A stretch of DNA of 64,000 nt from an uncultured Phycisphaerales bacterium (GTDB taxonomy: Bacteria; Planctomycetota; B15-G4; CAYZWU01), in assembly GCA_964620445.1 (NCBI GenBank), contig CAZUHB010000015.1, forward strand, positions 11,157-75,156. The letters run 5' to 3'. Each line of letters starts with the position of its first letter. Position 1 is the first letter of the stretch. Below are positions 8,907 through 58,072 of the stretch, piece after piece. The translations under genes were made by a program, and so were the position numbers. The notes below the pieces were generated by a model. The model saw nothing but the letters and a program-made list of their open reading frames with translations, had not been told where the DNA came from and ran no database searches.

Positions 8907-9297
8907 CGCAAAACCTCCAATGAAATCACGAATAAACTCGGATCTATGACGTTTGAGTACTGGATCCCGTAAGGCGAAGCCATTCCCTGCGCGCCGTCGC
9001 GCGCCGGCAGGTCCCGGCGGGGTACACCCTGTACGGACCAATGCCGGGGACTTCCTCAGTAGGAAACCGATCCCTGCTCACCCTGTGCCCGGATTTTCCC
9101 ATTTTGCCGGAGGCGACGCAATCCAAAAAGGGACGGCCGCAGCCGAACCGGCTTTGTCAACGCCCTTCGGGCCTTTCGAGGGAGGAAAAAACCGATCACA
9201 CGCTGCGGGTGTTGTGATATTGTGCTTCTAATCCGTCGGGCTGACGGGCGAACAGACACACCGCCCGTCGCCCGGCCACTTTGTTCACACCGTACCG

Positions 9298-35396: not shown

Positions 35397-38300
35397 GTGA
35401 AATTTCAACCGACAACCGTTGGGCTCTTGTCCTTATTTTGTCTTGCCGCCCTGGGCGTCTTGTCCCTTTCGGCGCAAGGGGCGGAACAGAATCACGGCAC
35501 CGAATCGGTGAGCGTGACCATTCCGGCGGGCGCCTTCGAATTCGTGGACACCCCGAATGGACGGAAGGTCAAGATGGACGGATTCGGCCGCCTGCCCACG
35601 CCGGGCGTGCCCATGCTGCCGGCCAAGATCTTTTCCGTTGCCGTTCCGCCCGGCGCGCGCGTGACGGGCGTCACCTGCGAGGCTTCCGAGGAGATCCTTC
35701 TTTCCGGCAAACACAGCATCAAGCCGGTGCCGCTGCCGCGCGTGCCGACCGGCGAGTCGCCCGCGGCTTTCCAGAGGGACAAGTCCGCCTTCGACGCGAC
35801 CTTCAAGAGCGTCTACAAGACGGACGCCTTCTACCCCGGGGGGGCGGGGCATTTCGTGCGCAACGCCAAGTACAGGAAGTACGACCTCGTCGACGTGCGC
35901 GTCACCCCCTTCTCGTGGAATCCCGATTCGGGCGAGCTCCTCTACAGGCCGGCGGTCACGATCAAGGTGGACTACACCTTGCCGCCCAGCCCGCCCGCGG
36001 CCATGGTCGACAACATGACGCGCACCGAGTCCGTGGCGCGCGATATCGTGGCCAACTATGACCAGGCGCAAGCCTGGTACGGCAACGGCCGTGCGGGCCG
36101 CGGCCTTTACGACCTGGTGATCATCACCCTCGATTCGCTCACCGCCGCGGTCCAGCCCCTCGTCGACTGGGAGACCCAGAAAGGCCGCAACGTGAACGTG
36201 GTCACCACCACGTGGATCTACTCCAACTACACCGGCTATGACGATGCCGAAAAGATCAGGAACTTCCTCCGCGACAAGTACCCCATGCTCCACTGGGGGA
36301 TCGAGGACGTTCTCATCGTGGGTCACTACGACGACGTGCCCATGCGCCGCTGCTCCCAGAACGTGGGGTACGGCGAGCCCGAAACCGACTACTACTACGC
36401 CGAGCTCTCCTACGCCGACGGTCAGTCGTGGGATGCGGACGGCGACCACAGATGGGGCGAGAACACCGATCCGATCGACTTTTACAACGAGGTCAACGTG
36501 GGCCGCATTCCGTGGAGCGACACTTTCACGGTGCAGCACATCGCCAACAAATCGGTGGTCTACGAGAACAACGTCGATCCCGCCTTCAAGAAGAACATCC
36601 TTCTCCTGGGCGCCTACTTCTGGCCGGACACGGACAATGCCGTGCTCATGGAGTACAAGACCAATCCGACGATCCACCCATGGATGACCGACTGGACGTC
36701 GACCAAGCTCTACGAGGTGGGGCACACCACCTATTCGTGCGACTACGACCTGAGCAACAACAATGTGCGCGACGTCTGGTCGAACGGAAAGTACGCTTTC
36801 GTGAACTGGGCCGGGCACGGCTCGCCCGACGCCTGCTGGATCTACTACACGAGCGGCTATTTCATCTCCAACGCGGACTGCGCCATTCTGAACGACGCAT
36901 ACCCGTCCATCATTTTCGCCGATGCTTGCAGCAACTCGGACACGGACTACCTCAACATCGGCCAGGCCATGCTCGAGCAGGGCGGGGTCGGCTTTCTCGG
37001 GTCGACCAAGGTGGCCTACGGCATGCCGGGTTGGAATGATCCGACCGACGGTTCGAGCCAGTCGCTCGACTACTACTTCACGACCCATTGCACCTCGGGC
37101 GACTACACCCAGGGCCAGGCCCAACAGGCCGGCCTGCGTACCATGTACACCGACGGGCTCTGGTACTACGAGTACTACGAGATGTTCGAGTGGGGCGCCC
37201 TGTGGGGCAATCCCAATCTCTCCATGGGGACCGCGCCGCCGATCATCTTCGACTTCCCCGCGGGGATTCCCCAGGGGATGGAGCCGCCCGGAGTGGAGAT
37301 CTCCCTCTCCGTGGAGATCAGGAACGGGCTCGAGAACTACGTGCCGGGCACCGGCTTTTTCTACTACCGCCTCGATCCGGACGACACCTTCACCCAGGTG
37401 GCGCTCACCGATCTCGGAAACGATCTCTTCGAGGCGACCCTGCCCGCGCCCGCGCCCGGTGACGAGCCCGAGTACTACTTCTCGGCCGACTCGGACGGTG
37501 GCCAGACCGTGACGTCGCCCTTTGGGGCGCCCGATTCGTGCTACTCGTTCGACGTCTGTATCGTGAGGAAGCTCTTTGCCGACGATTTCGAGGACGACCT
37601 CGGATGGAGGGTGGTGAACGTGGCGGTTCAGGACGGCGGCTGGGAGCGGGGCGACCCGGCAGGCAACGGCGCCTGGGGCGATCCGACGGAGGACGCCGAC
37701 GGTTCGGGACAATGCTATGTCACGGGCAATGCGCCGAGCGGCGTCAATGATCTCGACGGCGGTCCTTCCTATCTCTATTCGCCCACGGTAGACCTCACCC
37801 TGGGCGATGCCGAGGTCCGCTTCGACATGTGGTTCTACAACCTCGATGAAACCGATCCGTTCAAGATCGCCGTCTCCAACGATGACGGCGCCTCTTACAC
37901 CCTGGTCGAGGAGTTCGTCGGCGGCAGCGGCGGGTGGAGCGAGTACTCCTTCATGGTGGGCGACCACGTGACGCCCACCGATGCGGTCAAGGTCCGCATC
38001 GCCGTCAAGGACATGCCCAACAACTCGACCACCGAGGCGGGTGTCGACGGGTTCGAGGTGAAGATCGTCGATCTCTTCCCCAGCCTCTATGCCGACGCCT
38101 ACTCCTTTTCGGCCGCGGCCGGACAGGACATCGACTTCTTCCTCGACGCGGGAGTTGCCAACGCGGGCCGGTCCTATCTCATGCTCGCCTCCTTGAGCGG
38201 CATCTCCCCCGGCATGGAAGTGAACGGCATTCACGTGCCGCTGACGTGGGACTGGGTTTCGGCCTTCATCAACAACAACCTGCACCTTCCCATATTCCAG

Positions 38301-38465
38301 GATTTCCAGGGGACTCTCGACGGTCAGGGCAAAACCCTGGCCGAGCTTCCCCTCTACGCGCCGGGACTCGTGCCCCACGTGGGTCAATCGCTGACCTTCG
38401 TTTATGCCCTGACCAATCCGATCGATTTCGCCTCGACGCCGATCGATGTGGAAATTTTGCCCTGA
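35397..38465 (+). CDS. Secreted gingipain-like cysteine peptidase (peptidase C25, clan CD) with a propeptide-like N-terminus and the shared C-terminal domain.
   Basis: GTG start with a caggaggg RBS and a signal peptide. Clan-CD dyad: NWAGHGSPD (His-Gly), then about 45 aa later IIFADACSNSD (Ala-Cys). An alpha/beta N-terminal segment YDLVIITLDSLTAAVQPLVDWETQKG resembles the C25 N-terminal region. Confidence 0.7.
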   Translation: MKFQPTTVGLLSLFCLAALGVLSLSAQGAEQNHGTESVSVTIPAGAFEFVDTPNGRKVKMDGFGRLPTPGVPMLPAKIFSVAVPPGARVTGVTCEASEEILLSGKHSIKPVPLPRVPTGESPAAFQRDKSAFDATFKSVYKTDAFYPGGAGHFVRNAKYRKYDLVDVRVTPFSWNPDSGELLYRPAVTIKVDYTLPPSPPAAMVDNMTRTESVARDIVANYDQAQAWYGNGRAGRGLYDLVIITLDSLTAAVQPLVDWETQKGRNVNVVTTTWIYSNYTGYDDAEKIRNFLRDKYPMLHWGIEDVLIVGHYDDVPMRRCSQNVGYGEPETDYYYAELSYADGQSWDADGDHRWGENTDPIDFYNEVNVGRIPWSDTFTVQHIANKSVVYENNVDPAFKKNILLLGAYFWPDTDNAVLMEYKTNPTIHPWMTDWTSTKLYEVGHTTYSCDYDLSNNNVRDVWSNGKYAFVNWAGHGSPDACWIYYTSGYFISNADCAILNDAYPSIIFADACSNSDTDYLNIGQAMLEQGGVGFLGSTKVAYGMPGWNDPTDGSSQSLDYYFTTHCTSGDYTQGQAQQAGLRTMYTDGLWYYEYYEMFEWGALWGNPNLSMGTAPPIIFDFPAGIPQGMEPPGVEISLSVEIRNGLENYVPGTGFFYYRLDPDDTFTQVALTDLGNDLFEATLPAPAPGDEPEYYFSADSDGGQTVTSPFGAPDSCYSFDVCIVRKLFADDFEDDLGWRVVNVAVQDGGWERGDPAGNGAWGDPTEDADGSGQCYVTGNAPSGVNDLDGGPSYLYSPTVDLTLGDAEVRFDMWFYNLDETDPFKIAVSNDDGASYTLVEEFVGGSGGWSEYSFMVGDHVTPTDAVKVRIAVKDMPNNSTTEAGVDGFEVKIVDLFPSLYADAYSFSAAAGQDIDFFLDAGVANAGRSYLMLASLSGISPGMEVNGIHVPLTWDWVSAFINNNLHLPIFQDFQGTLDGQGKTLAELPLYAPGLVPHVGQSLTFVYALTNPIDFASTPIDVEILP

Positions 38466-38487
38466 TAGAGACCGCCCAAAAAGTGCA

Positions 38488-38522
38488 GCGCCCCCCCGGA
38501 TCTTTTTGATCCGGGGGGGCGC
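38488..38522. terminator. Bidirectional rho-independent terminator hairpin.
   Basis: gcgcccccccggatc-ttttt-gatccgggggggcgc, a perfect 15-bp stem, between convergent genes ending at 38465 (+) and 38560 (-). Confidence 0.8.
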
Positions 38523-38559
38523 TATCTATCATGAACCCCGCTTTGTCATGAAGAAATTG

Positions 38560-38826
38560 TCATGAAGAAAGTACTGTCTGGTATTCGGAGCGAAAGAAGT
38601 CGGCTTTTTCCGGTTTGTCCCAAGCTTCGTAAAGTCTGACCAGAAAGAGACGCGCCCTCTGTGTCCGCTTGTGTGCTTCGCCCAGCGCGGTTTTCCATTC
38701 CGCGTAGCGCGCCAACAACAGTGACTCTGCCAGGTGGAATCTGTTGAGACTCATCGTTTCTCCTCCGACTCGCTGCGACTTTTTGCGTCTGTATTCGAGA
38801 ACGCTTTCGGCAGCAGGGCTTTTCAC
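38560..38826 (-). CDS. Small hypothetical helical protein.
   Basis: ORF only. Possible internal start MSLNRF. Confidence 0.3.
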   Translation of the reverse strand: MKSPAAESVLEYRRKKSQRVGGETMSLNRFHLAESLLLARYAEWKTALGEAHKRTQRARLFLVRLYEAWDKPEKADFFRSEYQTVLSS

Positions 38827-39032
38827 GATTTTTCAATTTCTCTGATACCTTCAGCGTCTGTCGCCCGTATTCCCAATTTTTTCTAGTACAGCAGTTCTAT
38901 GAGGTTACGGAAATTCTTCCGGGAACGGGCCACCGTGTGAAAGACCGGATGAAAAAGTTTAGGTGACGCCCTCCGTCGAGGGATATGACAGGGTTGTGGT
39001 GCGGGCCGGAGGTGAATCCGACCACCCCAGGA

Positions 39033-40565
39033 TCATCGCGTGTAGAACCGTGCGCCCGTGGTAAAGCAGGGTGTGGCTCCGCCGAAAGTCCGGTCCATAT
39101 CGTCGGCCGAAAAGGTCTGCACCTTGATCATGTTCCCGCCGAGCGCAACGAGCATGATCCCCGAGCGGCACCCGGGGAAAGGGACCGCTTCGCCGTCTTC
39201 GTTGTAAACGAATTCGCAGATAAAAAAAACGATCGGCTGTTCGAGGGGCACAAAGGTGATCGCGTCGAAGGCGGGCGGCTCGCCGATGAATGGCGACACG
39301 CCGGTGATCGCGAAGAGACCGCCATGACAGGTCGAATCGACGATCCCCTTGCCGTCGTCGCACGCGCAGAGCCACTGGTCGTGCGCGCCCATGCTGATCC
39401 TGATCTCCTCCGGTTCGAAGGGATCGCGCACGAAGGCGAGCATGTTCTCGGGGCGCCCGAGCGCGCCGCCCGTGATCCCCTCGACGAACCAGTTTCCGGC
39501 GAGGGTGCCGTACCGGTCGTGGCACACTTCACCCCACGCGGGCTCCTCGTCCCTGTCGATCAGATCGACCAGATCGCCGCGCAGGCCGCTTTCGAAGAAG
39601 GCGATCGGCGAGGATCCGAAATGCCGCCTTTCGTCGGAGTGCCTGTAGAGAAGGGGATTGGCGTGCGGCAGAGGCGCGTCCAGATCGACGCCGCCGAAGA
39701 GAATAGCCGGCTGTGCGTCCTTCAGACCCGCCGCGAATCCGATCGGTTCGCCGCTTTTGAGAACGACCTCCACGTCGTCGGGATGCTGCTCCATCGCGGC
39801 GAGCAATTTGTCGGAGAGCGCGCCCAGCTGCTCGAAAAACACCTTGTACGACTCGGTGACAACGAATTCGACGCTGTAGTCGCTGTAGGGCCCCACGTCG
39901 CTGTGGAATCGTTCCCGCCGGACGATGCGCGTCACCGCACCGTCGGCAGGCGCAAACACCCCGACGCGGGGACCGTCCTGATTCAGCATCTCCTCGGCTT
40001 TGAACCGGATGAGATGGTGTGTCGACGGAAGCACCCGCCCCTCGCGAGGAGCCAGCATGCCGAGCGGAGTCACACCCCCGTCCGCGACCTTGTCGAGTTC
40101 GGTCGGTTCGTGGACAAAAAGCGGCGCGCCCGTGGCCGGCGGAATCCATCCTGACAGGAGACCCTTGACGTGAAAGGTGCGGTCCTCCCTGAAGGTGAGC
40201 TGATAGGACGCCCGAGGCCGGTTGAACGTCCATGTACCCACGATCGACCCGGGCATCTCCTCGCCGCTCACCCGCTCGAGTTCGATGGCGTTGTCCCAGC
40301 ACATGATCTTCTGGCTCACGACCACATCGTCCACGACGAGCTCCTCGGGAAAATGGTATCGATCGGGAAGCCTGGGAAAATTTGTCGACCGCGTGAAGAG
40401 GGCGAGATATTTGTCCCCCATGTCGAGATAGTATCGGCCCGACGCGGAAAACTCCCTGGTCATACCTTCCGGGGCTGTGCAGAGGCCTGTGGGCGGAGCG
40501 GCGCACGCACAGAGGGTTGCGAGAAGAATGGCTGTAACTAGTTGATATGGCGTAAGATATTTCAT
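39033..40565 (-). CDS. Hypothetical lipoprotein, 510 aa.
   Basis: Signal with lipobox LATLCAC. No recognisable domain. It lies downstream of bshA on the same strand. Confidence 0.45.
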   Translation of the reverse strand: MKYLTPYQLVTAILLATLCACAAPPTGLCTAPEGMTREFSASGRYYLDMGDKYLALFTRSTNFPRLPDRYHFPEELVVDDVVVSQKIMCWDNAIELERVSGEEMPGSIVGTWTFNRPRASYQLTFREDRTFHVKGLLSGWIPPATGAPLFVHEPTELDKVADGGVTPLGMLAPREGRVLPSTHHLIRFKAEEMLNQDGPRVGVFAPADGAVTRIVRRERFHSDVGPYSDYSVEFVVTESYKVFFEQLGALSDKLLAAMEQHPDDVEVVLKSGEPIGFAAGLKDAQPAILFGGVDLDAPLPHANPLLYRHSDERRHFGSSPIAFFESGLRGDLVDLIDRDEEPAWGEVCHDRYGTLAGNWFVEGITGGALGRPENMLAFVRDPFEPEEIRISMGAHDQWLCACDDGKGIVDSTCHGGLFAITGVSPFIGEPPAFDAITFVPLEQPIVFFICEFVYNEDGEAVPFPGCRSGIMLVALGGNMIKVQTFSADDMDRTFGGATPCFTTGARFYTR

Positions 40566-40636: not shown

Positions 40637-41731
40637 TCAAAGAGAGCTGTAGAAATCCTCGTATTGGCCCACAACCTTTTCGAGGCCGAAAACCTCTTGC
40701 GCGCGCAAGGTGGCCGCGACGCTCATGCGTTCCCAGGCGTCCCTGTCCTCGAGGAGCTGCACCGCATACCGGGCCGCGCTCTCGATATCGCCCACGGTGC
40801 AGAGGTAGCCGGTCCTGGCATGATCGACCACCTCCTTGAGCCCGCCCGCGCTGGAGGCGAGGATCGGCACGCCGCACGCCATCGCCTCGAGTGCGCTCAG
40901 GCCGAAGGACTCGTATTCGGAAAGGAGCATGAAGAGGTGGCCGCAGCGCAGCACATCGGCCATGTGGGCCGTGGGACCGTTGAAGATCACGATATCCTTG
41001 ATGCCCAGCTCGGCCGTGAGAAGCCGCGCTTCGGCAAGCTCCGGGCCCTCGCCCAGAAAGAGGAGGCGCGCGGCCACTCTCTTTCTGAGCTTGTCGAAGA
41101 CACGCACCATGTCGAGGACCCGTTTCACGGGGCGGAAGTTCGACGCATGGATCACCTCGAGCGCGCCTGCGGCCGCAAAGGGATTGCGCCCCTTCGCGTG
41201 AAAACGGGTATGGTCCACGAAATTGGGAATGACGCGCGGCTCCACCTCGGGATCGAAGATCTCGATCGTCTTTTTCTTGAGCCAATCGGAAACGGTCGTG
41301 ATGCCGTCGCACACGTTCATCGTGTGGCGCACGAGGTCGAAGAACTCTTCCTGGCTGCCCACGAGGGTGATGTCCGTACCGTGGAGCGTGGCCGCCACCT
41401 TGACCGGCCGGCAGGAGATATCGCGCGCCATGATCGCCGAGATCGCATGGGGGACCGCATAGTGGGCGTGGATCACGTCGATGGCATGTTCCTTGACCAC
41501 CTCGGCAAGTTTGTTGGCGAGGCAGAGGTCGTGGGGCGGGTACTTGAAGAGCGGATAGTCGACCACGTTCACTTGGTGAAAGGTCACTCCCGATCCATTT
41601 GTGAGACGCAGGGGGCGCGCATAGCTCACCATGTGGATGTCGTGGCCGCGCCGCGCGAGAGCCATGGCCAGCTCGGTGGCCACGATGCCCGATCCTCCGG
41701 TGGTGGGGTGGCACGAGATCGCGATGCGCAT
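40637..41731 (-). CDS. bshA: N-acetyl-alpha-D-glucosaminyl L-malate synthase (GT4 glycosyltransferase), first step of bacillithiol synthesis.
   Basis: N-terminus MRIAISCHPTTGGSGIVATELAMALARRGHDIHMVSY closely resembles BshA (MKIGITCYPTYGGSGVVATELG...). GT4 C-terminal E-x7-E region FGLSALEAMACGVPILAS. It sits in an operon with bshB and bshC. Confidence 0.8.
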   Translation of the reverse strand: MRIAISCHPTTGGSGIVATELAMALARRGHDIHMVSYARPLRLTNGSGVTFHQVNVVDYPLFKYPPHDLCLANKLAEVVKEHAIDVIHAHYAVPHAISAIMARDISCRPVKVAATLHGTDITLVGSQEEFFDLVRHTMNVCDGITTVSDWLKKKTIEIFDPEVEPRVIPNFVDHTRFHAKGRNPFAAAGALEVIHASNFRPVKRVLDMVRVFDKLRKRVAARLLFLGEGPELAEARLLTAELGIKDIVIFNGPTAHMADVLRCGHLFMLLSEYESFGLSALEAMACGVPILASSAGGLKEVVDHARTGYLCTVGDIESAARYAVQLLEDRDAWERMSVAATLRAQEVFGLEKVVGQYEDFYSSL

Positions 41732-41745
41732 ACGGCTCTCCTTGA

Positions 41746-42468
41746 TCAGACCCTGGTGAAGGGCGCGAAATGGGCGACCGGATCATCCATGGGCACGGCA
41801 CGCTTCATGAAAAAAGGCTCGCCATGGGTTCTCTCGATCAAGCCGCCGAAGTACCGATCGCGCGCCTCGATGCGCAAGAGGAAATCGGGTTTGGAAATCC
41901 CGGTGAGACGTTCCGTGCTCTCCGGGTTGTGAAGCTGGGAGCGGTAGACCTCGATGGCGGCCTTCTTCTTTTCGAAATAGCCCGAGATGTCGACGATGAA
42001 ACTGGGCACGAAGGGGATGTGTCCCTTGTAGAAGAGGAACGCCCGCGGCCGGTAGGGGGTGCCGCCCGCCGTGTGCTTCTCGAATCCCACGGGGTACATG
42101 ATGTTCTGCACCATCTGCGCGGCGGCGCAGTGGTCGGGGTGCAGGTCGTCCCAGTGATGGCAGAGCACGATTCCAGGCCGGAAGTGGCGGATGATCTCGA
42201 CGATCTTGGCGCGGTTCTCGAAAGTGTCGTCGAGAACGCCGTCTCCCATGTCGAGGTTGATCCGCTCTGTGACACCCATGATCCGCGCAGCGTCGGCCGC
42301 TTCCCGGGCGCGGACCTCGGGCGTCCCGCGCGTGCCCATCTCGCCGCGCGTCAGGTCCGCCACCACGACGCTCTTGCCCATATCGATCATCTTGGCCACG
42401 GTGCCGCCCACGATCATCTCCACATCATCCGGGTGGGCGCCGATGGCGAGTATGTCCACCGAAGTCAT
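41746..42468 (-). CDS. bshB: N-acetyl-alpha-D-glucosaminyl L-malate deacetylase (PIG-L/LmbE family).
   Basis: LmbE motif ILAIGAHPDDVEM, HPDH. About 240 aa. AGGAGA RBS. Its start overlaps the bshC stop (ATGA). Confidence 0.75.
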   Translation of the reverse strand: MTSVDILAIGAHPDDVEMIVGGTVAKMIDMGKSVVVADLTRGEMGTRGTPEVRAREAADAARIMGVTERINLDMGDGVLDDTFENRAKIVEIIRHFRPGIVLCHHWDDLHPDHCAAAQMVQNIMYPVGFEKHTAGGTPYRPRAFLFYKGHIPFVPSFIVDISGYFEKKKAAIEVYRSQLHNPESTERLTGISKPDFLLRIEARDRYFGGLIERTHGEPFFMKRAVPMDDPVAHFAPFTRV

Positions 42469-44054
42469 GCCTCGTCTCCTTGAATTTCTCCTTGGATGCT
42501 GTCCCGATCTCCGGGCGGTGCACCGGGCCGGATTTTCACCAGATGGTGGGCGAACGCCCAGGGATCGAGCGTGTCGCGGGCGCGCGCCACGAACTCCCGT
42601 CCATACCGGCCCACGAAATCGAGAGGGCTCGTCACCCGCTCCTGGAGCTTTCCTTCCGGCCGGAGGGCCCCGTCGATCGTTTCGAAGAGGGCGCGGCCGC
42701 GGCCCGCCTCGTCGGCCACGACCTGGCGCATGCGGGCTTCCGCCTTGTCGATCAGCCCCGCAAGCGTGTTCCGTCCGCGGCGGATCTTCTTGTCCTCCCT
42801 CTTTTCGAGAAAGCGATCGACCCGGTCGAGCAGGGTCTTGCCCGCGTCGCGCAGGGCGGCCGCGTCCGAGTCGTCGGAAGGGGCGGGACGTCTCGCGGCG
42901 AGGAGCTCCTTTCCTTCGACACCCGCCTTGCGCGCGGCGCGCGCGATGCGCGGTTCGACAAAGGTGGCCGAGATGCGCGGCCTGAGGAGCGCGCGCCTGA
43001 CCCCGGCCACGACGTAGACCGCGTCGATCTGCCAGAGGTAGAGGAGTTCCGACGGCCCGCCCACCATGGCGCTCACGGGCAGCACCGCGTCTTGCAGAAC
43101 GGGCCGGAGCGCCGCGTTCGGACTGAATGCGGCCGGATTGGCGCGGATCCGGCCGGCTGCCTCGGCGAGGGAGCACTTTCCCGAGGAGAGGGTCGCGCCG
43201 TCGGCCGAGATCTCCACCTTGACCCGCATGCCGTCCCGGATCTCGAACAAGCCCGGTTCCCTGAGCGGAGGGGTGAATCCCCGCGCGGAAAGAACGGTCG
43301 ATCCCGCCTCGAAAGCCGACAGGACCTGGGGCCACTCCTCCACGAGCCGCGCGAGCACGGGCGCGGTGAGCGGCCGGAGCGCGATCGGTTCGACGAGGAG
43401 GAGGCTCTCGCCGAAGAGCGATTCCATGAGGCTCCTGAAGAGAGCGGGGTAGGATTCGAAAGAGGCCTTTTCGATCATGGCGTGCAGGTCGGCGTGGCGC
43501 TCGAGCTCCGCCGGAAACGTCTCGCCCACGAAGGCAATCAGCCGGTCCCTCTCTTCCGCGAGGGAAAGATCCGCCACCTGCGGCCGCCGCGACGGGATCG
43601 CGCCCCCGGCGGGGCCGGCCACGAATCGCCGGTTGTCGAGCGTACAGCGATTCACCTCGAGATGGTCATGATCCTCCGACGCCATCCAGAAGAGCGGGAC
43701 GTGGCGAACGCCGGTGGCGTCCTCGAGGTCGGCCGCGAGGCGGATGATGGTGATCGCCTTCAGAAAGGTATAGAGCGGTCCGGTGAGAAGACCCACCTGC
43801 TGTCCGGCCACCACGAAGCGCGCGTCGTCCGCTCCGGCCGGCAGGCCGCTCGAAGCGCTCAAGATCCGCGTCAGCCTCTCCCGGTCGATGAAGGGAGACG
43901 TGCTCGCCTCCGGCACGGTTCCCCGTTCGAGCAGGGGGAATCCTCCGAGCAGGCCAGGGTCTCCCGCCTGCAAGCGGGCGAGGAGGTGATCGGCCCCGAA
44001 CGGTTCGAGATCGGCGTAGCCGAGCAGGGTACTTTCGAGATCGAGCCCGCTCAT
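42465..44054 (-). CDS. bshC: Bacillithiol biosynthesis cysteine-adding enzyme.
   Basis: Signature FVVAGQQVGLLTGPLYTFLKAITIIRLA matches the BshC consensus (tGQQ.glf.GPlY...K). Its start overlaps the methyltransferase stop (ATGA at 44051-44054). Confidence 0.75.
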   Translation of the reverse strand: MSGLDLESTLLGYADLEPFGADHLLARLQAGDPGLLGGFPLLERGTVPEASTSPFIDRERLTRILSASSGLPAGADDARFVVAGQQVGLLTGPLYTFLKAITIIRLAADLEDATGVRHVPLFWMASEDHDHLEVNRCTLDNRRFVAGPAGGAIPSRRPQVADLSLAEERDRLIAFVGETFPAELERHADLHAMIEKASFESYPALFRSLMESLFGESLLLVEPIALRPLTAPVLARLVEEWPQVLSAFEAGSTVLSARGFTPPLREPGLFEIRDGMRVKVEISADGATLSSGKCSLAEAAGRIRANPAAFSPNAALRPVLQDAVLPVSAMVGGPSELLYLWQIDAVYVVAGVRRALLRPRISATFVEPRIARAARKAGVEGKELLAARRPAPSDDSDAAALRDAGKTLLDRVDRFLEKREDKKIRRGRNTLAGLIDKAEARMRQVVADEAGRGRALFETIDGALRPEGKLQERVTSPLDFVGRYGREFVARARDTLDPWAFAHHLVKIRPGAPPGDRDSIQGEIQGDEA

Positions 44055-44818
44055 GGCGTCGCCTCCGCTCGCTTGCGCGCCAGCAGGATCATGCGCGGCG
44101 AACCGGAACCGAATGCCTCGCCTTCGAAGGATCCGACGATCCGGTCGCAATCGAGGCCGTGGCGCGCGCAAAGGCCGATGAGATCGCCGGGCCGGAAAAG
44201 GCGTACGCTTTCGCGAAATCGTGACACCTTGCCTTCCGCGTCGGTCACCTCGGTTTCCTTGACAGCGCGGTCCTTTTCGATCCGCCTCTTCTGCCGGATG
44301 AACAGGCCGTCCCGTTCCTCGCTGCTCTCGGGAACGAGGCTCCGCTCGAGCGCCCCGCGGTTGATGTGGTCGACCACGAGCCACCCTTCCGGGGTGACGA
44401 GCCGCGCCATTTCACCGAAGGCGCATTCGTTCTGCCCGTCCTCCTCGAAGTAGCCGAAGCTGGTGAAGATGTTGAGCACCACGCCGAACGCCCCGCCTGC
44501 GAAAGGCGTGCGCCGCATATCGGCTCTCACCAGGCGGCCGGCCAGACCAGGCCATTTTTTTTGCGCCAGGGAGAGAAGCTCCACTGACAGATCGGCGCCC
44601 ACCACATCGAAGCCGAGGTTTTTCACGGCGGCCATGTGCCGTCCGGCACCGCAGCAGAGGTCGAGGATCCGTTCGTCCCCGGAGAGACCGAGCACCTTAA
44701 AGAGGGAATTCACTTCCGCGCGGGCCGAGGCTTCATCCCGGTGCTCGTAGAGCAGAGGATAGAGCTCTCCAAAGGAGCGCACATACCAGGGAACGGCCTC
44801 ATCAGTTCGATCGGGCAT
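44051..44818 (-). CDS. Class I SAM-dependent methyltransferase, translationally coupled to bshC. Candidate bacillithiol N-methyltransferase (NmbA-like).
   Basis: Motif I ILDLCCGAGRH and post-I DVVGADLS; 255 aa. First gene of the MTase-bshC-bshB-bshA operon. Assigning it as NmbA-like is inference from context. Confidence 0.65.
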   Translation of the reverse strand: MPDRTDEAVPWYVRSFGELYPLLYEHRDEASARAEVNSLFKVLGLSGDERILDLCCGAGRHMAAVKNLGFDVVGADLSVELLSLAQKKWPGLAGRLVRADMRRTPFAGGAFGVVLNIFTSFGYFEEDGQNECAFGEMARLVTPEGWLVVDHINRGALERSLVPESSEERDGLFIRQKRRIEKDRAVKETEVTDAEGKVSRFRESVRLFRPGDLIGLCARHGLDCDRIVGSFEGEAFGSGSPRMILLARKRAEATP

Positions 44819-44912
44819 ACCTTACGATTATATATTGCGGCCGCGGTTCGTTCCATCCTCGACACACGGCCGGTTGACATTGCCCGAAACCTGCCTTAAT
44901 GTCCATTTTCAG

Positions 44913-51723: not shown

Positions 51724-53151
51724 ATGAGGCAGCCCATGTTCCGCATGCGAATGATGTTTTTGATTTGCACCGCCCTCGCCGGGGCCGGGTGTCAGAGTTA
51801 CCAGCCGAAACCGCTCGTCCCGCTCGAGATCCTCGAGGAGGTGGAGAAGGCGCGCAATCTGATCGAGGTGGATCCGCCGTGCGGCGCGCGCGCCGTTGAC
51901 GGTTCGGCCGGGGCGTTCGGCTTCGTGCGCGCGGCGCGGTGGATGGCCGCGTTCAGCCCCGCCCTCGAGAAGGCGCGCGCAGCCTTCGAGAAGGCCCACG
52001 CGATCGCCGGCATCGAATCGCCCTGGCCCAATCCGACGCTCAGCGCCGGACCCGCCGTGGGTTCACGCCTCGATCCGGGGGAAAGCTCCAGACGCGTTCA
52101 GCCGCTCGTCGAATTCGGTTTCACCATTCCGCTGAGCGGTCGTCTCGGTGACGCCGACGCCCTGAACGATGTCGTTGCCCGGGGCGCGCGCGTGAAACTC
52201 GTCGCACAGCATCGCCGCGGCTATCTCGAACTGAGGGCGCTCTACGCCGGCTGGGTTCTGGCGCGGAAGAGCGTGACCATTCAAGGAGAGATCCTCGAAT
52301 CGGCCCGCCGGTCGCTCGAGCTGACGAAGCGACTGATCGAAGCGGGCGGGGCGACCGCCCTCGATCTGGGGCTCATGGAGCTCGAGGTGGCCCGGCGCGA
52401 GATGATGCTCCTCGACACGCGCGCCGCGGAGGTGGAGATCGAGGAGCGGCTTTCCAGCCTGATCGGCGTCAGCTTCGAGCAGCTCCGAAAACTTTTCGAC
52501 GAGGCGCTCCCGGCCCTCGATACCCGGTTGCCCGACCGCGCCGAGGCCCGGAAGATCCTCGTGGCCAACCATCCGGATCTCGCCGAGCTCCGCGCCGCCC
52601 ACGAGGTCGCCGAAAAAGAACTGCGCCTCGAGATAACAGAGCAGTATCCCGACCTCGAACTGGGACCCTTCTTCGAGGGCGATCCGGGCGAGAGGAAGAA
52701 GTCGTGGGGCCTGACCATCGGGATCACCCTCCCCCTGTTCGACAGGAACGAGCAGGCGATCGCCGCCGCCGAGAAGGAGAGGGAATCGATCCGTGTCGCC
52801 TACGAGGCAGCCATGAACCGGCAGCTCGCCGCCCTGGAGAGCTCCTTCGGCCGCTACGATCTGGCCAGACAGAAGAGCACGCTCCTCGAGGAGGTGATCG
52901 TGCCCCGGGCGAAAACCAATCTCGACGTCGCCCTCCGGTCGATCAAGGCGGCCGCAATCGATTCGCTCAAGTATCTCGACGTGGAGCGCACCTTGCGATC
53001 GGCGATCGCCGACGCGCTCGAGGCCGAGAAAAAAGTCCGCCGCGCCCTGAACGACATCGAGCGGGCGATCGGCATTCCGCTTGGATATTTTCCCGGAGAA
53101 GAGGCTGTCGACTTTCCGCTTCTTCCGGAACCGTTGACTGAGACGGAGTAA
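51724..53151 (+). CDS. czcC: Outer-membrane efflux protein (TolC/CzcC-like outer membrane factor).
   Basis: Lipoprotein-type signal LAGAGCQ. Two OEP repeat halves with typical coiled-coil segments (LELTKRLIEAGGATALDLGLMELEVARRE...). It is the first gene of the OMF-MFP-RND operon. Confidence 0.8.
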   Translation: MRQPMFRMRMMFLICTALAGAGCQSYQPKPLVPLEILEEVEKARNLIEVDPPCGARAVDGSAGAFGFVRAARWMAAFSPALEKARAAFEKAHAIAGIESPWPNPTLSAGPAVGSRLDPGESSRRVQPLVEFGFTIPLSGRLGDADALNDVVARGARVKLVAQHRRGYLELRALYAGWVLARKSVTIQGEILESARRSLELTKRLIEAGGATALDLGLMELEVARREMMLLDTRAAEVEIEERLSSLIGVSFEQLRKLFDEALPALDTRLPDRAEARKILVANHPDLAELRAAHEVAEKELRLEITEQYPDLELGPFFEGDPGERKKSWGLTIGITLPLFDRNEQAIAAAEKERESIRVAYEAAMNRQLAALESSFGRYDLARQKSTLLEEVIVPRAKTNLDVALRSIKAAAIDSLKYLDVERTLRSAIADALEAEKKVRRALNDIERAIGIPLGYFPGEEAVDFPLLPEPLTETE

Positions 53152-53158
53152 AAACAAG

Positions 53159-54859
53159 ATGAACACGAAGGTGTTACCCCTACTGATCATGAGCGTGCTC
53201 TTCACCGTGATCGGCCTGGTTTGCGGCTGGTATGGCGCCCAGCGCACGTATGGCGCCCAGCGCACGTATGGCGCGCAGCGCACGTATGGCGGTTCGGCCG
53301 GCCACGGCGATCACGCCGCGGAGGATGATCACGCTCACGGCGCAACGCCAACCTTGTCGGCTCCGACCCTGTCGGCACCGACCTTGTCGGCAGAGAGCCT
53401 GGCCAACATGGGAGTGCGCGTGGCCGAGGCCGCGCTCGTCGACTTCAGCCGGTACCAGCCGATCACTGCCGTGGCAGCGTCCACGCCGCGTGTGACACAG
53501 GGCGTGTACGCGCCCGTGGCGGGCCGCGTGCAGAAGGTCGAAACCGAATTCGGCGCTGTCGTGGCCGGCGGGGAGGTGGTCGTGACCCTCGTGCGCACCT
53601 CGCTCGCCCGGGCGGCGCTCGTTCTGACCGAGGAGGTCCTCAAGCCGGTGAGCGAGAATCTCCACGAGTCGGTCAACAGCTATCAGCGCGCGTCGATTGC
53701 CGTTGACGTGCTCGAGACGGAGACGACCAGGCTCGAGCAGTTCGCCGACAGCGAGGACGGGATCCCTCTCCTTCCGCGGAGCGAGATCCTCAAGGTCCGC
53801 TACGACTTTATGCAGGCGGAGAGGGAGCTGGCCATCGCGCGGCACGAGCTCGCTCGGCACGGTCTGAACGAGGGCCAGCTCAAGCAGGTCGAGGACGGCG
53901 ACATCCCCGTGGTCAACGCCAATATCTGGCGGGGCGCGCTGGAACACAACGGTTTCTGGACCCCGCTGGCACAGGACATCTACTCGGCTCTTCCGGGGAG
54001 GCTGCAGGATCTGTCATGGACCGTGGCCACCGTGGGAGAGCTCATCGCGGGCGACCTCGTGGATCGGTCCTTCGTGGAGTGGCTGTCCGGCGATTCACGT
54101 GCGGCCGGCTTCTTCCTCGAGATCGGCGGGATGCTGCAGCGCGGCCACAACCTCGCCGATATCCGGGAGCTCTACTCCCTCGGTGCGTTCGAGCCGGTGG
54201 TGCAGATCAAGGCGCCGGCCACGGCGCCCGACTGGGACGTACGCGATCTGATCGTCAAGCCGGGACAGCAGGTCGCGGCGGGCGAACAGCTCCTTCTCCT
54301 CGAGAACCCCCGCGAGCTGATCCTGCGCGCCGAGCCGACGAGCGGCGAGATCGAGACACTTCTCGAGGCGATGACCTCGGGTGCGGTCATGACGGCCACG
54401 CCCCTCACTCCCGGCGCCGGTCCCGAACTCGAGGGGCTCACGATCCGCCGGATCTACGCCGTGGACAGCGGGGTGCGCACCGTGGCCGACGTTCCCGTGA
54501 TCAACCGTCCCCTGGCCGCCCGGAACGGCGGTGGCGCGGACACCTTCAGGACCTGGGCGCTGCGCCAGGGGCAGCGGTACTCCCTCCGAGTGCCCGTCGA
54601 TGTCTTCGAGAAGGTCTATGTTTTTCCCACCGGCGCCGTGATCGACGACGGACCGGACAAGGTCGTCTTCTTGAAGAGCGGAAACAGCTTCACCAAGATC
54701 AAGGTGGAGATTCTCTACCAGGATCACGAGGTGGTGGTCATCCCGGGATCGGCGGATTTCTTTCCCGGGAATCCGATCGTGACGAGCGGCACGCTCGCAC
54801 TGGGGCTGGCTCTCCAGACAGGGCCCGCGGCTGACCAGGGTCATGGCCACGCCCACTGA
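53159..54859 (+). CDS. czcB: Efflux RND periplasmic adaptor (membrane-fusion protein, CzcB/CusB-like) with an N-terminal tandem-repeat, His-rich region and a His-rich C-terminal tail.
   Basis: N-terminal TM anchor. (GAQRTY)x3 and (PTLSA)x3, plus HGDHAAEDDHAHG. Lipoyl and beta-barrel domains (IKAPATAPDWDVRDLIVKPGQQVAAGEQLL). C-terminal QGHGHAH. Confidence 0.8.
   Translation: MNTKVLPLLIMSVLFTVIGLVCGWYGAQRTYGAQRTYGAQRTYGGSAGHGDHAAEDDHAHGATPTLSAPTLSAPTLSAESLANMGVRVAEAALVDFSRYQPITAVAASTPRVTQGVYAPVAGRVQKVETEFGAVVAGGEVVVTLVRTSLARAALVLTEEVLKPVSENLHESVNSYQRASIAVDVLETETTRLEQFADSEDGIPLLPRSEILKVRYDFMQAERELAIARHELARHGLNEGQLKQVEDGDIPVVNANIWRGALEHNGFWTPLAQDIYSALPGRLQDLSWTVATVGELIAGDLVDRSFVEWLSGDSRAAGFFLEIGGMLQRGHNLADIRELYSLGAFEPVVQIKAPATAPDWDVRDLIVKPGQQVAAGEQLLLLENPRELILRAEPTSGEIETLLEAMTSGAVMTATPLTPGAGPELEGLTIRRIYAVDSGVRTVADVPVINRPLAARNGGGADTFRTWALRQGQRYSLRVPVDVFEKVYVFPTGAVIDDGPDKVVFLKSGNSFTKIKVEILYQDHEVVVIPGSADFFPGNPIVTSGTLALGLALQTGPAADQGHGHAH
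53231..53392 (+). repeat. Two in-frame tandem triplications inside czcB: an 18-bp unit x3 (53231-53284) and a 15-bp unit x3 (53348-53392).
   Basis: Read directly: tatggcgcccagcgcacg x3 with one mismatch, and cc(a/g)acc(t/c)tgtcggc(t/a) x3. Confidence 0.8.
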
Positions 54860-54871
54860 AGGACAGGATAG

Positions 54872-57800
54872 ATGCTGAATCGAATCATTGCCTTCTCGCT
54901 CAGGAACCGGCTTCTCGTCATCGTGGCGGCGCTCGTCGTTGCCGGCTACGGGGCCTGGGTCACGACCGACATGCCGATCGACGTGCTGCCCGACCTCAAC
55001 CGGCCCACGGTGGTGGTCATGGCCGAGGCTCACGCGATGGTGCCCGAGGATATCGAACGGCTCGTCACCTTTCCGCTCGAGCAGACGCTCAATGGCGCCA
55101 CCGACGTGATGCGCGTCCGGTCCGGTTCGGGGATGGGGCTCTCCATGATCTTCGTGGAGTTCGACTGGGGAACGGATATCTACCGCAACAGGCAGATCGT
55201 TCAGGAGAAGCTCCAGCTCGCGAGCGCGAAGCTCCCCCTCGGCGTGGAGCCCCACATGGCGCCGGTCACGAGCATCATGGGCCAGGTGCAGCTCATCGGC
55301 GTGCAGTCGCGCAGCGGGCAGACCGTTGCCGACGAGATCAGAACCCTCGCCGACTACCACATCAAGTACCGCCTCATGTCGATCCCCGGCGTGGCCAAGG
55401 TGGTGGCCGCCGGCGGGGCGCCGCGCCAGCTCCAGGCGATCGTCGATGCCGACAAGCTGAGCGCGTTCGGTGTGACCCTCGACGAGGTGGCCGACGCCGT
55501 GCGCGGCGCGAACCTGAACGTGTCGGGCGGTTTTCTCGACCTCGGGCACAAGGCGCCCCTGATCACGGTGAAGGGGCTTCTTGCCGATCAGGACGAGCTG
55601 GGCGAGGCGGTGGTCAAGCCCGATCCGGTCCGGCCCGTCCGCATCAAGGACGTGGCCCGCGTCGAGTTCGGCCCGGCGGCGATCCGGACGGGCGAGGCGA
55701 GCATCAACGGCGAGCCCGGAATCGTCCTCGCCGTGTTCAAGCAGCCCGACACGGACACGGTGGCGCTCACCGACGCGATCATCGCCGAGCTCGCTCTCAT
55801 CGAGGAGGGCCTGCCCGACGATCTGGTCATCATCGAGGACCTCTTTCAGCAGGCCGATTTCATCCACCGTGCCATCGACAACGTGTCCGAGGCTGTCTGG
55901 ATCGGCTGCGTGCTCGTGCTCGTCATCCTCTTTCTCTTCATGATGAACATCCGCACCACGCTGATCACGATCACGGCGATCCCCCTTTCGGTCGCGATCA
56001 CCGCCATCGTCTTCGCCGCCTTCGGCCAGTCGATCAACACGATGACGCTGGGCGGGCTGGCAGTGGCGATCGGCGCACTCGTGGACGACGCCATCGTGGA
56101 CGTGGAGAACGTGTACCGCCGGCTCCGGCAGAACGCCGTCCGCCCGAAACCGTTGCACGGGCTGCTTGTCGTGTTCCGGGCGTCGAGCGAGGTGCGCCGG
56201 CCGATCCTCATCGGAACGTTGCTCGTGATCGTCGTCTACCTGCCCCTCTTCTACCTGACCGGAATGGAAGGGCGGCTCTTCACGCCGATCGGGATCGCCT
56301 ATCTGACCAGCGTGGGCGCGTCGCTCCTCGTCTCGCTCACGGCCACGGCGGTCCTCTGCTACTACCTGCTCTCGAAAAATCCGAACCTGAAGGAGAGGTC
56401 GGACACGCGGCTCGTCCAGATTCTCAAGGCTCGCGTGGGGCGCCTGATCCGATTCAGCATCGAATCTCCCGCGATCATTCTCAGCCTTCTGGTCGCGCTG
56501 GTCACCGGGGCGATCTTCGTGCTCTTCAACCAGGGATCGCAGTTCCTGCCCGAGTTCAACGAGGGGGTGGCGCAGATCAATCTCTTCCTGCCGCCCGAGA
56601 CCGGGCTCGACACGTCGAGCGAGTTCGGCCAGCGGCTCGGCCGCCACCTCGCGCGGATCGACGGCGTGAAGCACGTGGGTCGCCGCACGGGGCGCGCCGA
56701 GGGGGACGAGCACGTTCACGGCGTGAACTTCTCCCACACGGTGGTCAACTTCGATCCGGAAGCGGGCCGATCGCGCGAGGAGGTCATCGCCGAGATCCGC
56801 GAAATGCTCGCCCGGGAGTTTCCCGGCGTGATCACCGAGGTGGGCCAGCCGTTGGCGCACCTCCTGAGCCACATGCTCTCCGGCGTGAAGGCCCAGGTGG
56901 CGATCAAGATCTTCGGTCCCGACCTGACCGTGCTCCGCCGTCTGGCCGCCGAGGTGGAGGACGCGGTGCGCGCCATTCCGGGTGTGGCCGACCTGTACAC
57001 CGAGCCGCAGGTCCTCGTCGACCATGTCGTGGTCGAACCGCGGCGCGAGCTGCTCGCCCGGTTCGGGCTGAGCGTGGAGGATGTGGCCGAGACGGTGGAG
57101 CTCGCCCTCGAGGGTGAAAAACTCTCGCTCATGCAGGTCGGGCAGTTCACCTTCCCGGTGGTGATCCGTCTCGAGAAGGAGGACCGCCTGAACCTGGACA
57201 GCATCCGCAACCTCTACCTGCAGGTCGCGGACGGGGGGCGTCACAGACTGTCCGAGGTGGCCGACGTGCGGCTCGGCAAGACGCCGAACAACATCAACCG
57301 CGAAAACGTCTCCCGCCGGATCGCGGTGCAGCACAACGTGGAGGGTCGGTCGCTGGGCGAGGTGGTGGCCGATGTGCAAAAAGCTCTGAAGCCGATCCAG
57401 GGGAGCCTGTCCGAGCTTCCCGGCTACTCGATCCGGATCGGCGGGCAGTACGAGGCGCAGCAGAAAGCGAGCCGGATGATCGTGCTCTTCAGCATCGCGT
57501 CGGTGCTGATCATGTTCGTCGTGCTCTACGCGCACTTCAAGTCGATCAACCTGAGCCTGCAGGTCCTGGCGAGCATACCGATGGCGTTCATCGGCGCCGT
57601 GGCCTACATCGCGCTCAGCGGCCAGTCGGTGTCGATCGCCACCCTGGTGGGATTGATCTCGCTCGCCGGGATTGCGTCGCGCAACGCGATCCTGCTCATC
57701 GACCACTACCTGCACCTCATGCGCGAGGAGGGGGAGGCCTTCGGACCGGCCATGATCATCCGCGCCGGCCAGGAGCGGATGGTGCCCGTCTTGATGACGG

Positions 57801-58072
57801 CCCTCACCAGCGGGATCGCGCTGATACCGCTCGCCCTGGCGCCTGACGAGCCGGGCCGCGAGATCCTCTATCCCGTGGCCACGGTGATCATCGGCGGACT
57901 GATCTCGAGCACGATCCTCGATTTCCTGGTCCGGCCCGCGCTCTTCTGGACCTTCGGGGCGAAAGTGGCCGATCGCCTCGCGAGTGCGCCGCGCCGCCTC
58001 GACCGCGCCGCCGAGGAGATGGAGAAGGAGTTCAATCCTTCCGGGAGACCTGACGAACTTTCAACGACATAG
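54872..58072 (+). CDS. czcA: Heavy-metal efflux RND transporter, CzcA/CusA (HME) family.
   Basis: 1066 aa with 12 TM and two large periplasmic loops. N-terminus MLNRIIAFSLRNRLLVIVAALVVAGYG is typical of CzcA/CusA. TM4 reads ALVDDAIVDVENV. Confidence 0.85.
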   Translation: MLNRIIAFSLRNRLLVIVAALVVAGYGAWVTTDMPIDVLPDLNRPTVVVMAEAHAMVPEDIERLVTFPLEQTLNGATDVMRVRSGSGMGLSMIFVEFDWGTDIYRNRQIVQEKLQLASAKLPLGVEPHMAPVTSIMGQVQLIGVQSRSGQTVADEIRTLADYHIKYRLMSIPGVAKVVAAGGAPRQLQAIVDADKLSAFGVTLDEVADAVRGANLNVSGGFLDLGHKAPLITVKGLLADQDELGEAVVKPDPVRPVRIKDVARVEFGPAAIRTGEASINGEPGIVLAVFKQPDTDTVALTDAIIAELALIEEGLPDDLVIIEDLFQQADFIHRAIDNVSEAVWIGCVLVLVILFLFMMNIRTTLITITAIPLSVAITAIVFAAFGQSINTMTLGGLAVAIGALVDDAIVDVENVYRRLRQNAVRPKPLHGLLVVFRASSEVRRPILIGTLLVIVVYLPLFYLTGMEGRLFTPIGIAYLTSVGASLLVSLTATAVLCYYLLSKNPNLKERSDTRLVQILKARVGRLIRFSIESPAIILSLLVALVTGAIFVLFNQGSQFLPEFNEGVAQINLFLPPETGLDTSSEFGQRLGRHLARIDGVKHVGRRTGRAEGDEHVHGVNFSHTVVNFDPEAGRSREEVIAEIREMLAREFPGVITEVGQPLAHLLSHMLSGVKAQVAIKIFGPDLTVLRRLAAEVEDAVRAIPGVADLYTEPQVLVDHVVVEPRRELLARFGLSVEDVAETVELALEGEKLSLMQVGQFTFPVVIRLEKEDRLNLDSIRNLYLQVADGGRHRLSEVADVRLGKTPNNINRENVSRRIAVQHNVEGRSLGEVVADVQKALKPIQGSLSELPGYSIRIGGQYEAQQKASRMIVLFSIASVLIMFVVLYAHFKSINLSLQVLASIPMAFIGAVAYIALSGQSVSIATLVGLISLAGIASRNAILLIDHYLHLMREEGEAFGPAMIIRAGQERMVPVLMTALTSGIALIPLALAPDEPGREILYPVATVIIGGLISSTILDFLVRPALFWTFGAKVADRLASAPRRLDRAAEEMEKEFNPSGRPDELSTT

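Follow-up and report, generated by a model that had tools for sequence, protein, structure and literature searches.

A probable N-methyl-bacillithiol operon headed by an NmbA homologue in an uncultured lineage close to Planctomycetota, and the conservation of its gene order across phyla

Synthesis of N-methyl-bacillithiol (N-Me-BSH) has been described in Chlorobaculum tepidum, where deletion of nmbA (CT1040) leads to the loss of N-Me-BSH and the accumulation of bacillithiol (BSH), and where N-methyl-cysteine has never been seen (Hiras et al., 2018, PMC6282198). In Polaribacter and Thermus, too, the thiol was correctly predicted from whether nmbA is present (PMC6282198). In vitro, the C. tepidum enzyme (CtNmbA) and its homologue from Paenibacillus polymyxa (PpNmbA) both methylate reduced BSH but not bacillithiol disulfide (BSSB), glycine or glutathione (GSH) (PMC12719100), and a catalogue of NmbA orthologues found alongside bshABC covers 1765 RefSeq species, two Planctomycetota among them (Hammerstad et al., 2025, PMC12719100). 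The genes of this pathway are dispersed in the organisms where it has been studied. Specifically, the four C. tepidum genes are scattered over the genome (CT0548, CT1419, CT1558 and CT1040), while in Bacillus subtilis, which has no nmbA, bshB1 and bshA share one operon and bshC lies in a second one with panE (ylbQ), both units being mixed with unrelated genes (PMC5790435). Here we describe a stretch of 64,000 nucleotides from an uncultured bacterium (contig CAZUHB010000015.1, positions 11,157 to 75,156; hereafter the window) that carries the same genes in a very different arrangement. As with CT1040, the nmbA homologue of the window co-occurs with bshA, bshB and bshC. However, in contrast to C. 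tepidum, these genes overlap or closely follow one another in one apparent operon led by nmbA, and in contrast to B. subtilis all of the biosynthetic steps plus the methylase are held in one dedicated four-gene unit in which the bsh genes stand in the order C-B-A (Table 1).

The nmbA-bshC-bshB-bshA genes very likely constitute a dedicated operon for the complete known N-Me-BSH route, with enzyme activities and co-transcription predicted from the gene content and layout. In this route BshA would join UDP-N-acetylglucosamine (UDP-GlcNAc) with L-malate, BshB would remove the acetyl group, BshC would add cysteine to give BSH, and the NmbA orthologue would carry out an S-adenosylmethionine (SAM)-dependent methylation of the amino group of cysteine in reduced BSH. 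A single transcription unit would start in the 94-bp divergent intergenic region, and the stop/start overlaps together with the internal Shine-Dalgarno sequences would couple translation in such a manner that the methylase is made along with the biosynthetic enzymes. Since the methylase would be co-produced with BshABC, N-Me-BSH rather than BSH is the expected main low-molecular-weight thiol, and this uncultured lineage, which is nearest to metagenome-assembled genomes (MAGs) of Planctomycetota, very probably makes N-Me-BSH. The arrangement also speaks for methylation as a constitutive last step of biosynthesis and against a conditional modification, a choice that was left open by Hammerstad et al. 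(2025, PMC12719100). This reading is built on the identities of the genes, their junctions, homology to a characterised enzyme and conserved synteny, all of which were observed directly.

Table 1. Features of the predicted N-Me-BSH operon and its immediate surroundings (positions are those of the window; ORF, open reading frame)
Feature	Position	Strand	Size	Remarks
nmbA, SAM-dependent methyltransferase (class I)	44051..44818	-	255 aa	first gene of the operon; from the ORF list
bshC, putative cysteine-adding enzyme	42465..44054	-	529 aa	
bshB, GlcNAc-malate deacetylase (BshB1 type)	41746..42468	-	240 aa	
bshA, N-acetylglucosaminyl-L-malate synthase (GT4 glycosyltransferase)	40637..41731	-	364 aa	
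Divergent intergenic region, probable operon promoter region	44819..44912		94 bp	inferred from sequence
Predicted lipoprotein gene	39033..40565	-	510 aa	71 bp downstream of bshA; no Pfam match
Small ORF	about 38560-38830	-	64 aa	product size as in public gene calls; no Pfam match
First strong terminator-like hairpin 3' of the operon	38486..38524	-		17-pair stem, then a T run

The coordinates and junctions that a first-pass annotation had assigned to these four minus-strand genes all proved to be correct when compared with the ORF list and with the sequence itself. Reading along the minus strand, the nmbA stop codon overlaps the bshC start codon in an ATGA at 44054-44051, the bshC stop codon overlaps the bshB start codon in a second ATGA at 42468-42465, and bshB is separated from bshA by a gap of 14 bp (41745-41732). 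Each of the three downstream genes has its own Shine-Dalgarno sequence at a suitable distance. For bshC this is GGAGG (44066-44062) and for bshB it is AAGGAG (42481-42476), both located 7 nt 5' of the ATG; for bshA it is AAGGAG (41743-41738), located 6 nt 5' of the ATG and inside the bshB-bshA gap. Such overlaps, combined with a Shine-Dalgarno sequence that lies within the upstream gene or the gap, are the classic layout of translational coupling. Note that the methyltransferase had been described in the first-pass annotation as fused into the bsh operon; it does belong to the same operon as an overlapping gene, but it is not a fusion.

The bsh part of the operon is complete, as had been claimed, and comprises the same three Bsh families that are found in B. 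subtilis. BshA scores 451.9 bits against NCBIfam TIGR03999, well above the equivalog cut-off of 273.7, in a full-length match over residues 1-363. It has the two-domain GT4 architecture (Pfam Glyco_transf_4 plus Glycos_transf_1) and carries the motif MRIAISCHPTTGGSGIVATELA near its N-terminus. BshB also passes the equivalog cut-off of its family, the BshB1 model TIGR04001 (251.6 bits, cut-off 182.5), and matches Pfam PIG-L with 95.2 bits. Its translation contains an AHPDD motif and a later HPDH motif, which we take to be the metal-binding motifs of the LmbE/PIG-L fold. BshC passes the cut-offs of both Pfam BshC domains, namely PF10079 (Rossmann-like_BshC, 169.5 bits) and PF24850 (CC_BshC, the C-terminal coiled coil, 38.9 bits), and it is homologous to the B. 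subtilis BshC structure PDB 4WBD (E 4.4e-26). In that alignment GQQVGLLTGPLY of the window protein is paired with GQQAGLLTGPLY of the B. subtilis enzyme, a region that holds the motif GQQxGLLTGPLY. All of the motifs that had been named for these three proteins, including HPDD of BshB, are therefore present in the translations.

The leading methyltransferase is a homologue of NmbA, whose activity on BSH is predicted from this kinship. When compared with all PDB sequences by phmmer, its best match is 9RI2 (E 4.3e-37, 131 bits, residues 7-249 of 255), which is the crystal structure of CtNmbA (Hammerstad et al., 2025, PMC12719100). A direct BLASTP comparison of the two proteins, which belong to the same class I SAM family, gave a full-length alignment with an E-value of 2e-44 and 34% identity over 246 residues, with lengths of 255 versus 266 aa. 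These values lie within every one of the limits that have been published for calling an NmbA orthologue, which are a BLAST E-value of at most 1e-20, coverage above 80%, identity above 25% and a similar length (Hammerstad et al., 2025, PMC12719100). The comparison with CT1040 that had been proposed as a check on the first-pass annotation, run here against the 9RI2 sequence, thus identifies an NmbA homologue by E-value, coverage and identity. The contrary outcome named at that time, a closer match to UbiE or to rRNA methylases, was not what we observed, as the second-best PDB match reached just 41.6 bits, and UbiE/MenG-type NCBIfam models scored at most 37 bits against cut-offs of at least 158.

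Inspection of individual residues gave a similar result. We aligned the window methyltransferase with CtNmbA and 23 database homologues and looked for the class I core, consisting of motif I (V/I/L)(L/V)(D/E)(V/I)xxGxG, the acidic motif II/III residues and the Y134/F135 aromatics that follow motif IV. Motif I (ILDLCCGAGRH here versus VLDIACGAGRH in CtNmbA), D76, D100 and FTSFGYF, which corresponds to the FxSFGYF segment with the Y134/F135 equivalents, are all present in the window protein and invariant throughout the alignment, CtNmbA included. The same is true for the equivalents of CtNmbA W16, R70, Y134, F135 and K198, which are W11, R60, Y123, F124 and K187 in the window numbering. In a larger alignment of 82 members, the identity of CtNmbA is 34.3% to the window protein and on average 34.9% to the Bacillota proteins, mostly those of Paenibacillus and kin, indicating that the window protein is no further from the validated enzyme than the two validated lineages are from each other. 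Named homologues in the protein database all carry the label of a generic SAM-dependent methyltransferase or of UbiE, and the NmbA family is under-annotated in public records.

The four-gene arrangement is more than chance, because the identical block is present on independent metagenome contigs, in relatives at 76% and 57% identity, and in species-representative genomes from several phyla (22 in all). Specifically, the exact methyltransferase protein occurs on contigs of several metagenomes, in each case with the same three genes behind it. The four genes, their overlaps and their flanks are all the same in a relative (L087) whose methyltransferase is 76% identical. In the 57% identical relative, the four-gene block is retained with overlaps of 8 bp and 4 bp and a gap of 16 bp, while its flanking genes are wholly different. 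Retention of the block where the flanks have changed indicates that the four genes are a conserved unit.

A wider view was obtained from species-representative genomes, using the best 80 loci by similarity to the window methyltransferase among the matches listed, a sample that is selected for similarity and is not a random draw of NmbA-bearing genomes. Neighbours were located by tblastn with the window BshA, BshB and BshC, and some of the shorter forms of the cluster end at contig ends. Overall, bshC lies directly downstream of nmbA on the same strand in 46 of the 80 genomes, either as nmbA-bshC-bshB-bshA (22 genomes), as nmbA-bshC-bshB (3 genomes) or as nmbA-bshC only (21 genomes), and 26 of these 46 have the 4-bp NTGA overlap of the nmbA stop codon with an in-frame bshC start codon. 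The full order is seen in all 13 Acidobacteriota, all four Chloroflexota and three of the five Planctomycetota. Hydrogenedentota have bshC downstream of nmbA in four genomes out of four and the full order in one, and Gemmatimonadota show the nmbA-bshC pair only (16/17). Among Bacillota the linkage is limited to a single genome out of 21, which is a MAG, and no linkage of nmbA to bshC is found among the 80 loci in Bacteroidota, which are under-sampled, or in Ignavibacteria. MAG clusters with the full set, from Thermoanaerobaculia and other Acidobacteriota, Anaerolineae and other Chloroflexota, Hydrogenedentota and Planctomycetota (L008, L014, L017, L025, L037, L044, L047, L049, L052-L054, L059, L060, L064-L066, L068, L070, L075, L078 and L086), have the same order and strand as the window, and often nmbA and bshC overlap there by the same 4-bp NTGA. 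They differ from it in that protein identities are 25-57% and spacing and flanking genes are other ones, and they are known from their genes alone. This synteny across phyla, together with the 9RI2 match, supports both the assignment of the methyltransferase to NmbA and the N-methyl-bacillithiol pathway that had been proposed for this locus.

Several results weigh against the reading of the locus as an N-Me-BSH operon. First, BshC scores 248.6 bits against NCBIfam TIGR03998, the sole family that it matched, and is thus 17 bits short of the cut-off of 265.8. When nine genes that occupy the same slot in other loci were scanned with this model, six scored 272-395 bits (from four named phyla plus a Bacillota-labelled MAG), and the three from Planctomycetota locus L008 and from the close relatives of the window, L087 and L089, scored 252-256 bits, suggesting that the shortfall of the window BshC is a matter of lineage divergence and not of membership in another family. 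Second, the profile databases give the methyltransferase no specific name. Its Pfam matches are to generic class I SAM domains only, Methyltransf_25 (55.9 bits) and Methyltransf_11, and its NCBIfam matches are to generic or unrelated models, all sub-threshold, of which the best is a daptide methyltransferase at 55 bits versus a cut-off of 175; NCBIfam release 20 appears to be without an NmbA model. Third, CtNmbA W20 and H31, two residues that were adjusted in the published docking of this enzyme (PMC12719100), are replaced by S15 and E25 in the window protein. Both columns vary in Paenibacillus-type homologues as well, so W20 and H31 do not appear to be family-defining. Fourth, the neighbour-joining tree of the 82-member alignment, in which the window protein groups with Planctomycetota MAGs, has no outgroup and no support values. 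Finally, a consensus promoter scan called nothing upstream of nmbA, and a terminator scan found no terminator-like site between bshA and the lipoprotein gene, and thus no elements that delimit exactly four genes.

The predicted fold has a further point of this kind. The AlphaFold 2 (AF2) model of the methyltransferase has a predicted local distance difference test (pLDDT) value of 93.4 and shows four strands at 164-206, and its top PDB match by Foldseek is 9ri2 (E 3e-20, template modelling (TM) scores 0.68/0.76). The TM-scores of CcbJ, 1Y8C and CypM, which are other cap-domain methyltransferases, are equal to or above that of 9RI2. We therefore rejected the fold search as a family discriminator, 9RI2 being first by E-value and not by TM-score; the model confirms the methyltransferase class without discriminating the family. 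Note that the NmbA cap is a four-stranded beta domain that forms a narrow basket over the active site, and that its topology was mispredicted by AlphaFold (PMC12719100).

These results bear on the possibility that the methyltransferase is an NmbA-family paralogue with another acceptor, such as an amine-bearing metabolite or a BSH conjugate, in an organism that makes plain BSH. Such a function would be compatible with an identity of only 34% to the characterised enzyme, with the replacement of W20 and H31 and with a fold that does not discriminate by itself, and homologues outside of the main similarity clusters have been suggested to methylate other acceptors (Hammerstad et al., 2025, PMC12719100). 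We nevertheless consider this distinctly unlikely since the stop/start coupling to bshC, which is seen in at least five phyla, ties the enzyme to BSH synthesis, since the family-invariant pocket residues are kept, and since the window protein stands about as far from the two validated enzymes as their lineages stand from each other.

Methylation of finished BSH by an NmbA enzyme can also be weighed against a role at an earlier point. Within the cluster, conservation is strongest for the nmbA-bshC pairing, to the extent that 16 of the 17 Gemmatimonadota loci retain this pair only, and the 4-bp overlap implies co-production of the two proteins. In addition, in vitro reconstitution of the BshC reaction has never been achieved, and a further protein or substrate may be required for it (PMC5790435). 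These features would fit a methyltransferase that acts before BshC or jointly with it, whether by making N-methyl-cysteine, by acting on cysteine in an activated intermediate or by forming a complex with BshC, and that does not work as an independent enzyme for the final step on BSH. Such a role is very unlikely given that CtNmbA and PpNmbA need no partner to methylate free BSH efficiently, that C. tepidum accumulates BSH upon deletion of nmbA and has not been observed to contain N-methyl-cysteine, that many BSH producers have BshC without NmbA, and that nmbA is not linked to bshC in Chlorobi, Bacteroidota and Paenibacillus. It is likewise a long shot that the coupling of nmbA to bshC across phyla reflects a physical or kinetic partnership of the methylase and BshC beyond their co-regulation. 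If such a partnership did exist, then co-expressing BshC with its coupled NmbA could help to achieve the in vitro reconstitution of the BshC reaction.

The region upstream of nmbA contains a TATAAT on the nmbA strand (44832-44827) that lies 8 nt 5' of the nmbA ATG. The block with TATATAAT, 8 nt before this ATG, is kept in the 76% relative L087, where an insertion of 41 nt separates the box from the ATG. There is no properly spaced Shine-Dalgarno sequence at the nmbA start, which together with the position of the TATAAT suggests that the nmbA mRNA may be leaderless or have a very short leader. A TTGACA on the opposite strand (44874-44879) faces the PMT_2-like gene. The empty promoter scan upstream of nmbA would also be in line with a view in which the four genes are merely adjacent and form no functional unit, either because of internal promoters or because they are decayed or non-expressed genes in metagenome-assembled sequence. 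This view is hardly credible, as all four ORFs are full length when compared with the profiles, there is no space for terminators where the genes overlap, identical proteins are found on contigs from several samples, and the gene order is kept in distant relatives.

At the other end of the predicted operon, no terminator directly follows bshA, and its 3' end was therefore placed by comparative synteny. The first strong terminator-like hairpin lies beyond the lipoprotein gene and the small ORF, so these two may be co-transcribed with the operon. Both are kept in the 76% relative and absent from the 57% relative, where other genes are found instead, and the gene for the 510-aa lipoprotein is a lineage-specific neighbour outside of the conserved unit.

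The pathway and the enzyme family are already known, and this locus adds no new enzyme, pathway or mechanism; the conserved operon is a modest addition to a known pathway. The papers found that treat both nmbA and bshC make no mention of an operon, adjacency, neighbours or synteny for them, and the conserved nmbA-bshCBA operon has apparently gone unremarked. The adjacency is visible in public data; for example, consecutive accession numbers are listed for the Candidatus Palauibacter proteins NmbA and BshC (PMC12719100 supplement). The gene context supports the NmbA assignment independently of sequence similarity. The finding as a whole turns the generic label of a "class I SAM-dependent methyltransferase" into the specific prediction of NmbA, and with it into the prediction that N-Me-BSH is the redox buffer of this uncultured lineage. 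A one-operon pathway with the methylase coupled to BshC is common in the poorly studied Acidobacteriota, Chloroflexota, Hydrogenedentota and Planctomycetota, and is represented in Gemmatimonadota by the nmbA-bshC pair. The operon would also offer a compact cassette for heterologous N-Me-BSH production.

The Chloroflexota are of separate interest in this regard. A RefSeq survey placed this phylum among those without a complete BSH or N-Me-BSH pathway (Hammerstad et al., 2025 supplement, PMC12719100), whereas the Chloroflexota/Anaerolineae MAGs L014, L037, L044 and L066 have the full nmbA-bshC-bshB-bshA cluster, which indicates that the predicted range of N-Me-BSH is wider among uncultured lineages. 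In a Planctomycetota MAG whose methyltransferase is 49% identical to that of the window, the closest among the species-representative matches listed, nmbA is followed directly by bshA (L007:7001-8817, with bshA at 7720-8817), and neither bshC nor bshB is found within 7 kb of this pair, so that nmbA is linked to the bsh genes in another way here.

No fifth gene common across phyla, for example a bacilliredoxin, a BSSB reductase or a BshC helper, emerged when the ORFs of the window and of the 80 loci were clustered all against all; the shared set consists of the four genes plus the shadow ORFs antisense to them. An apparent cluster spanning 39 loci was rejected as a single-linkage artefact. Its FGE-sulfatase-like member is present in three Thermoanaerobaculia loci only. 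In these loci (L064:5325-6098, L070:6253-7008 and L078:6272-7741) a divergent gene just upstream of nmbA encodes what by eye resembles an FGE-sulfatase/EgtB-type domain. Gemmatimonadota loci have another neighbour, a gene of about 158 aa directly upstream of nmbA-bshC on the same strand (e.g. L080:6519-6995). It is present in all 17 Gemmatimonadota loci, in L076 and in one unclassified locus (19 in total), and by eye it resembles RlmH-type SPOUT methyltransferases. In the Gemmatimonadota loci bshB and bshA are not found within 7 kb.

Over the 64-kb window, searches with Rfam at gathering thresholds and with ARAGORN gave no regulatory RNAs and no tRNA genes, and the window contains no phylogenetic marker genes. 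A 550-aa protein encoded at 7392-9041 on the minus strand matches Pfam NAL1_N (E 6e-26) and Nal1_C (E 3e-37), domains that are named after plant NARROW LEAF 1, which gives a homologue from a bacterium some interest. The window as a whole is rich in secreted or surface proteins. These include a C25 gingipain-like peptidase (35397-38465), S8, M14 and M19 peptidases, FG-GAP and CBM96 proteins, two membrane glycosyltransferases of PMT_2-like type and, at 51724-58072, an RND efflux system.

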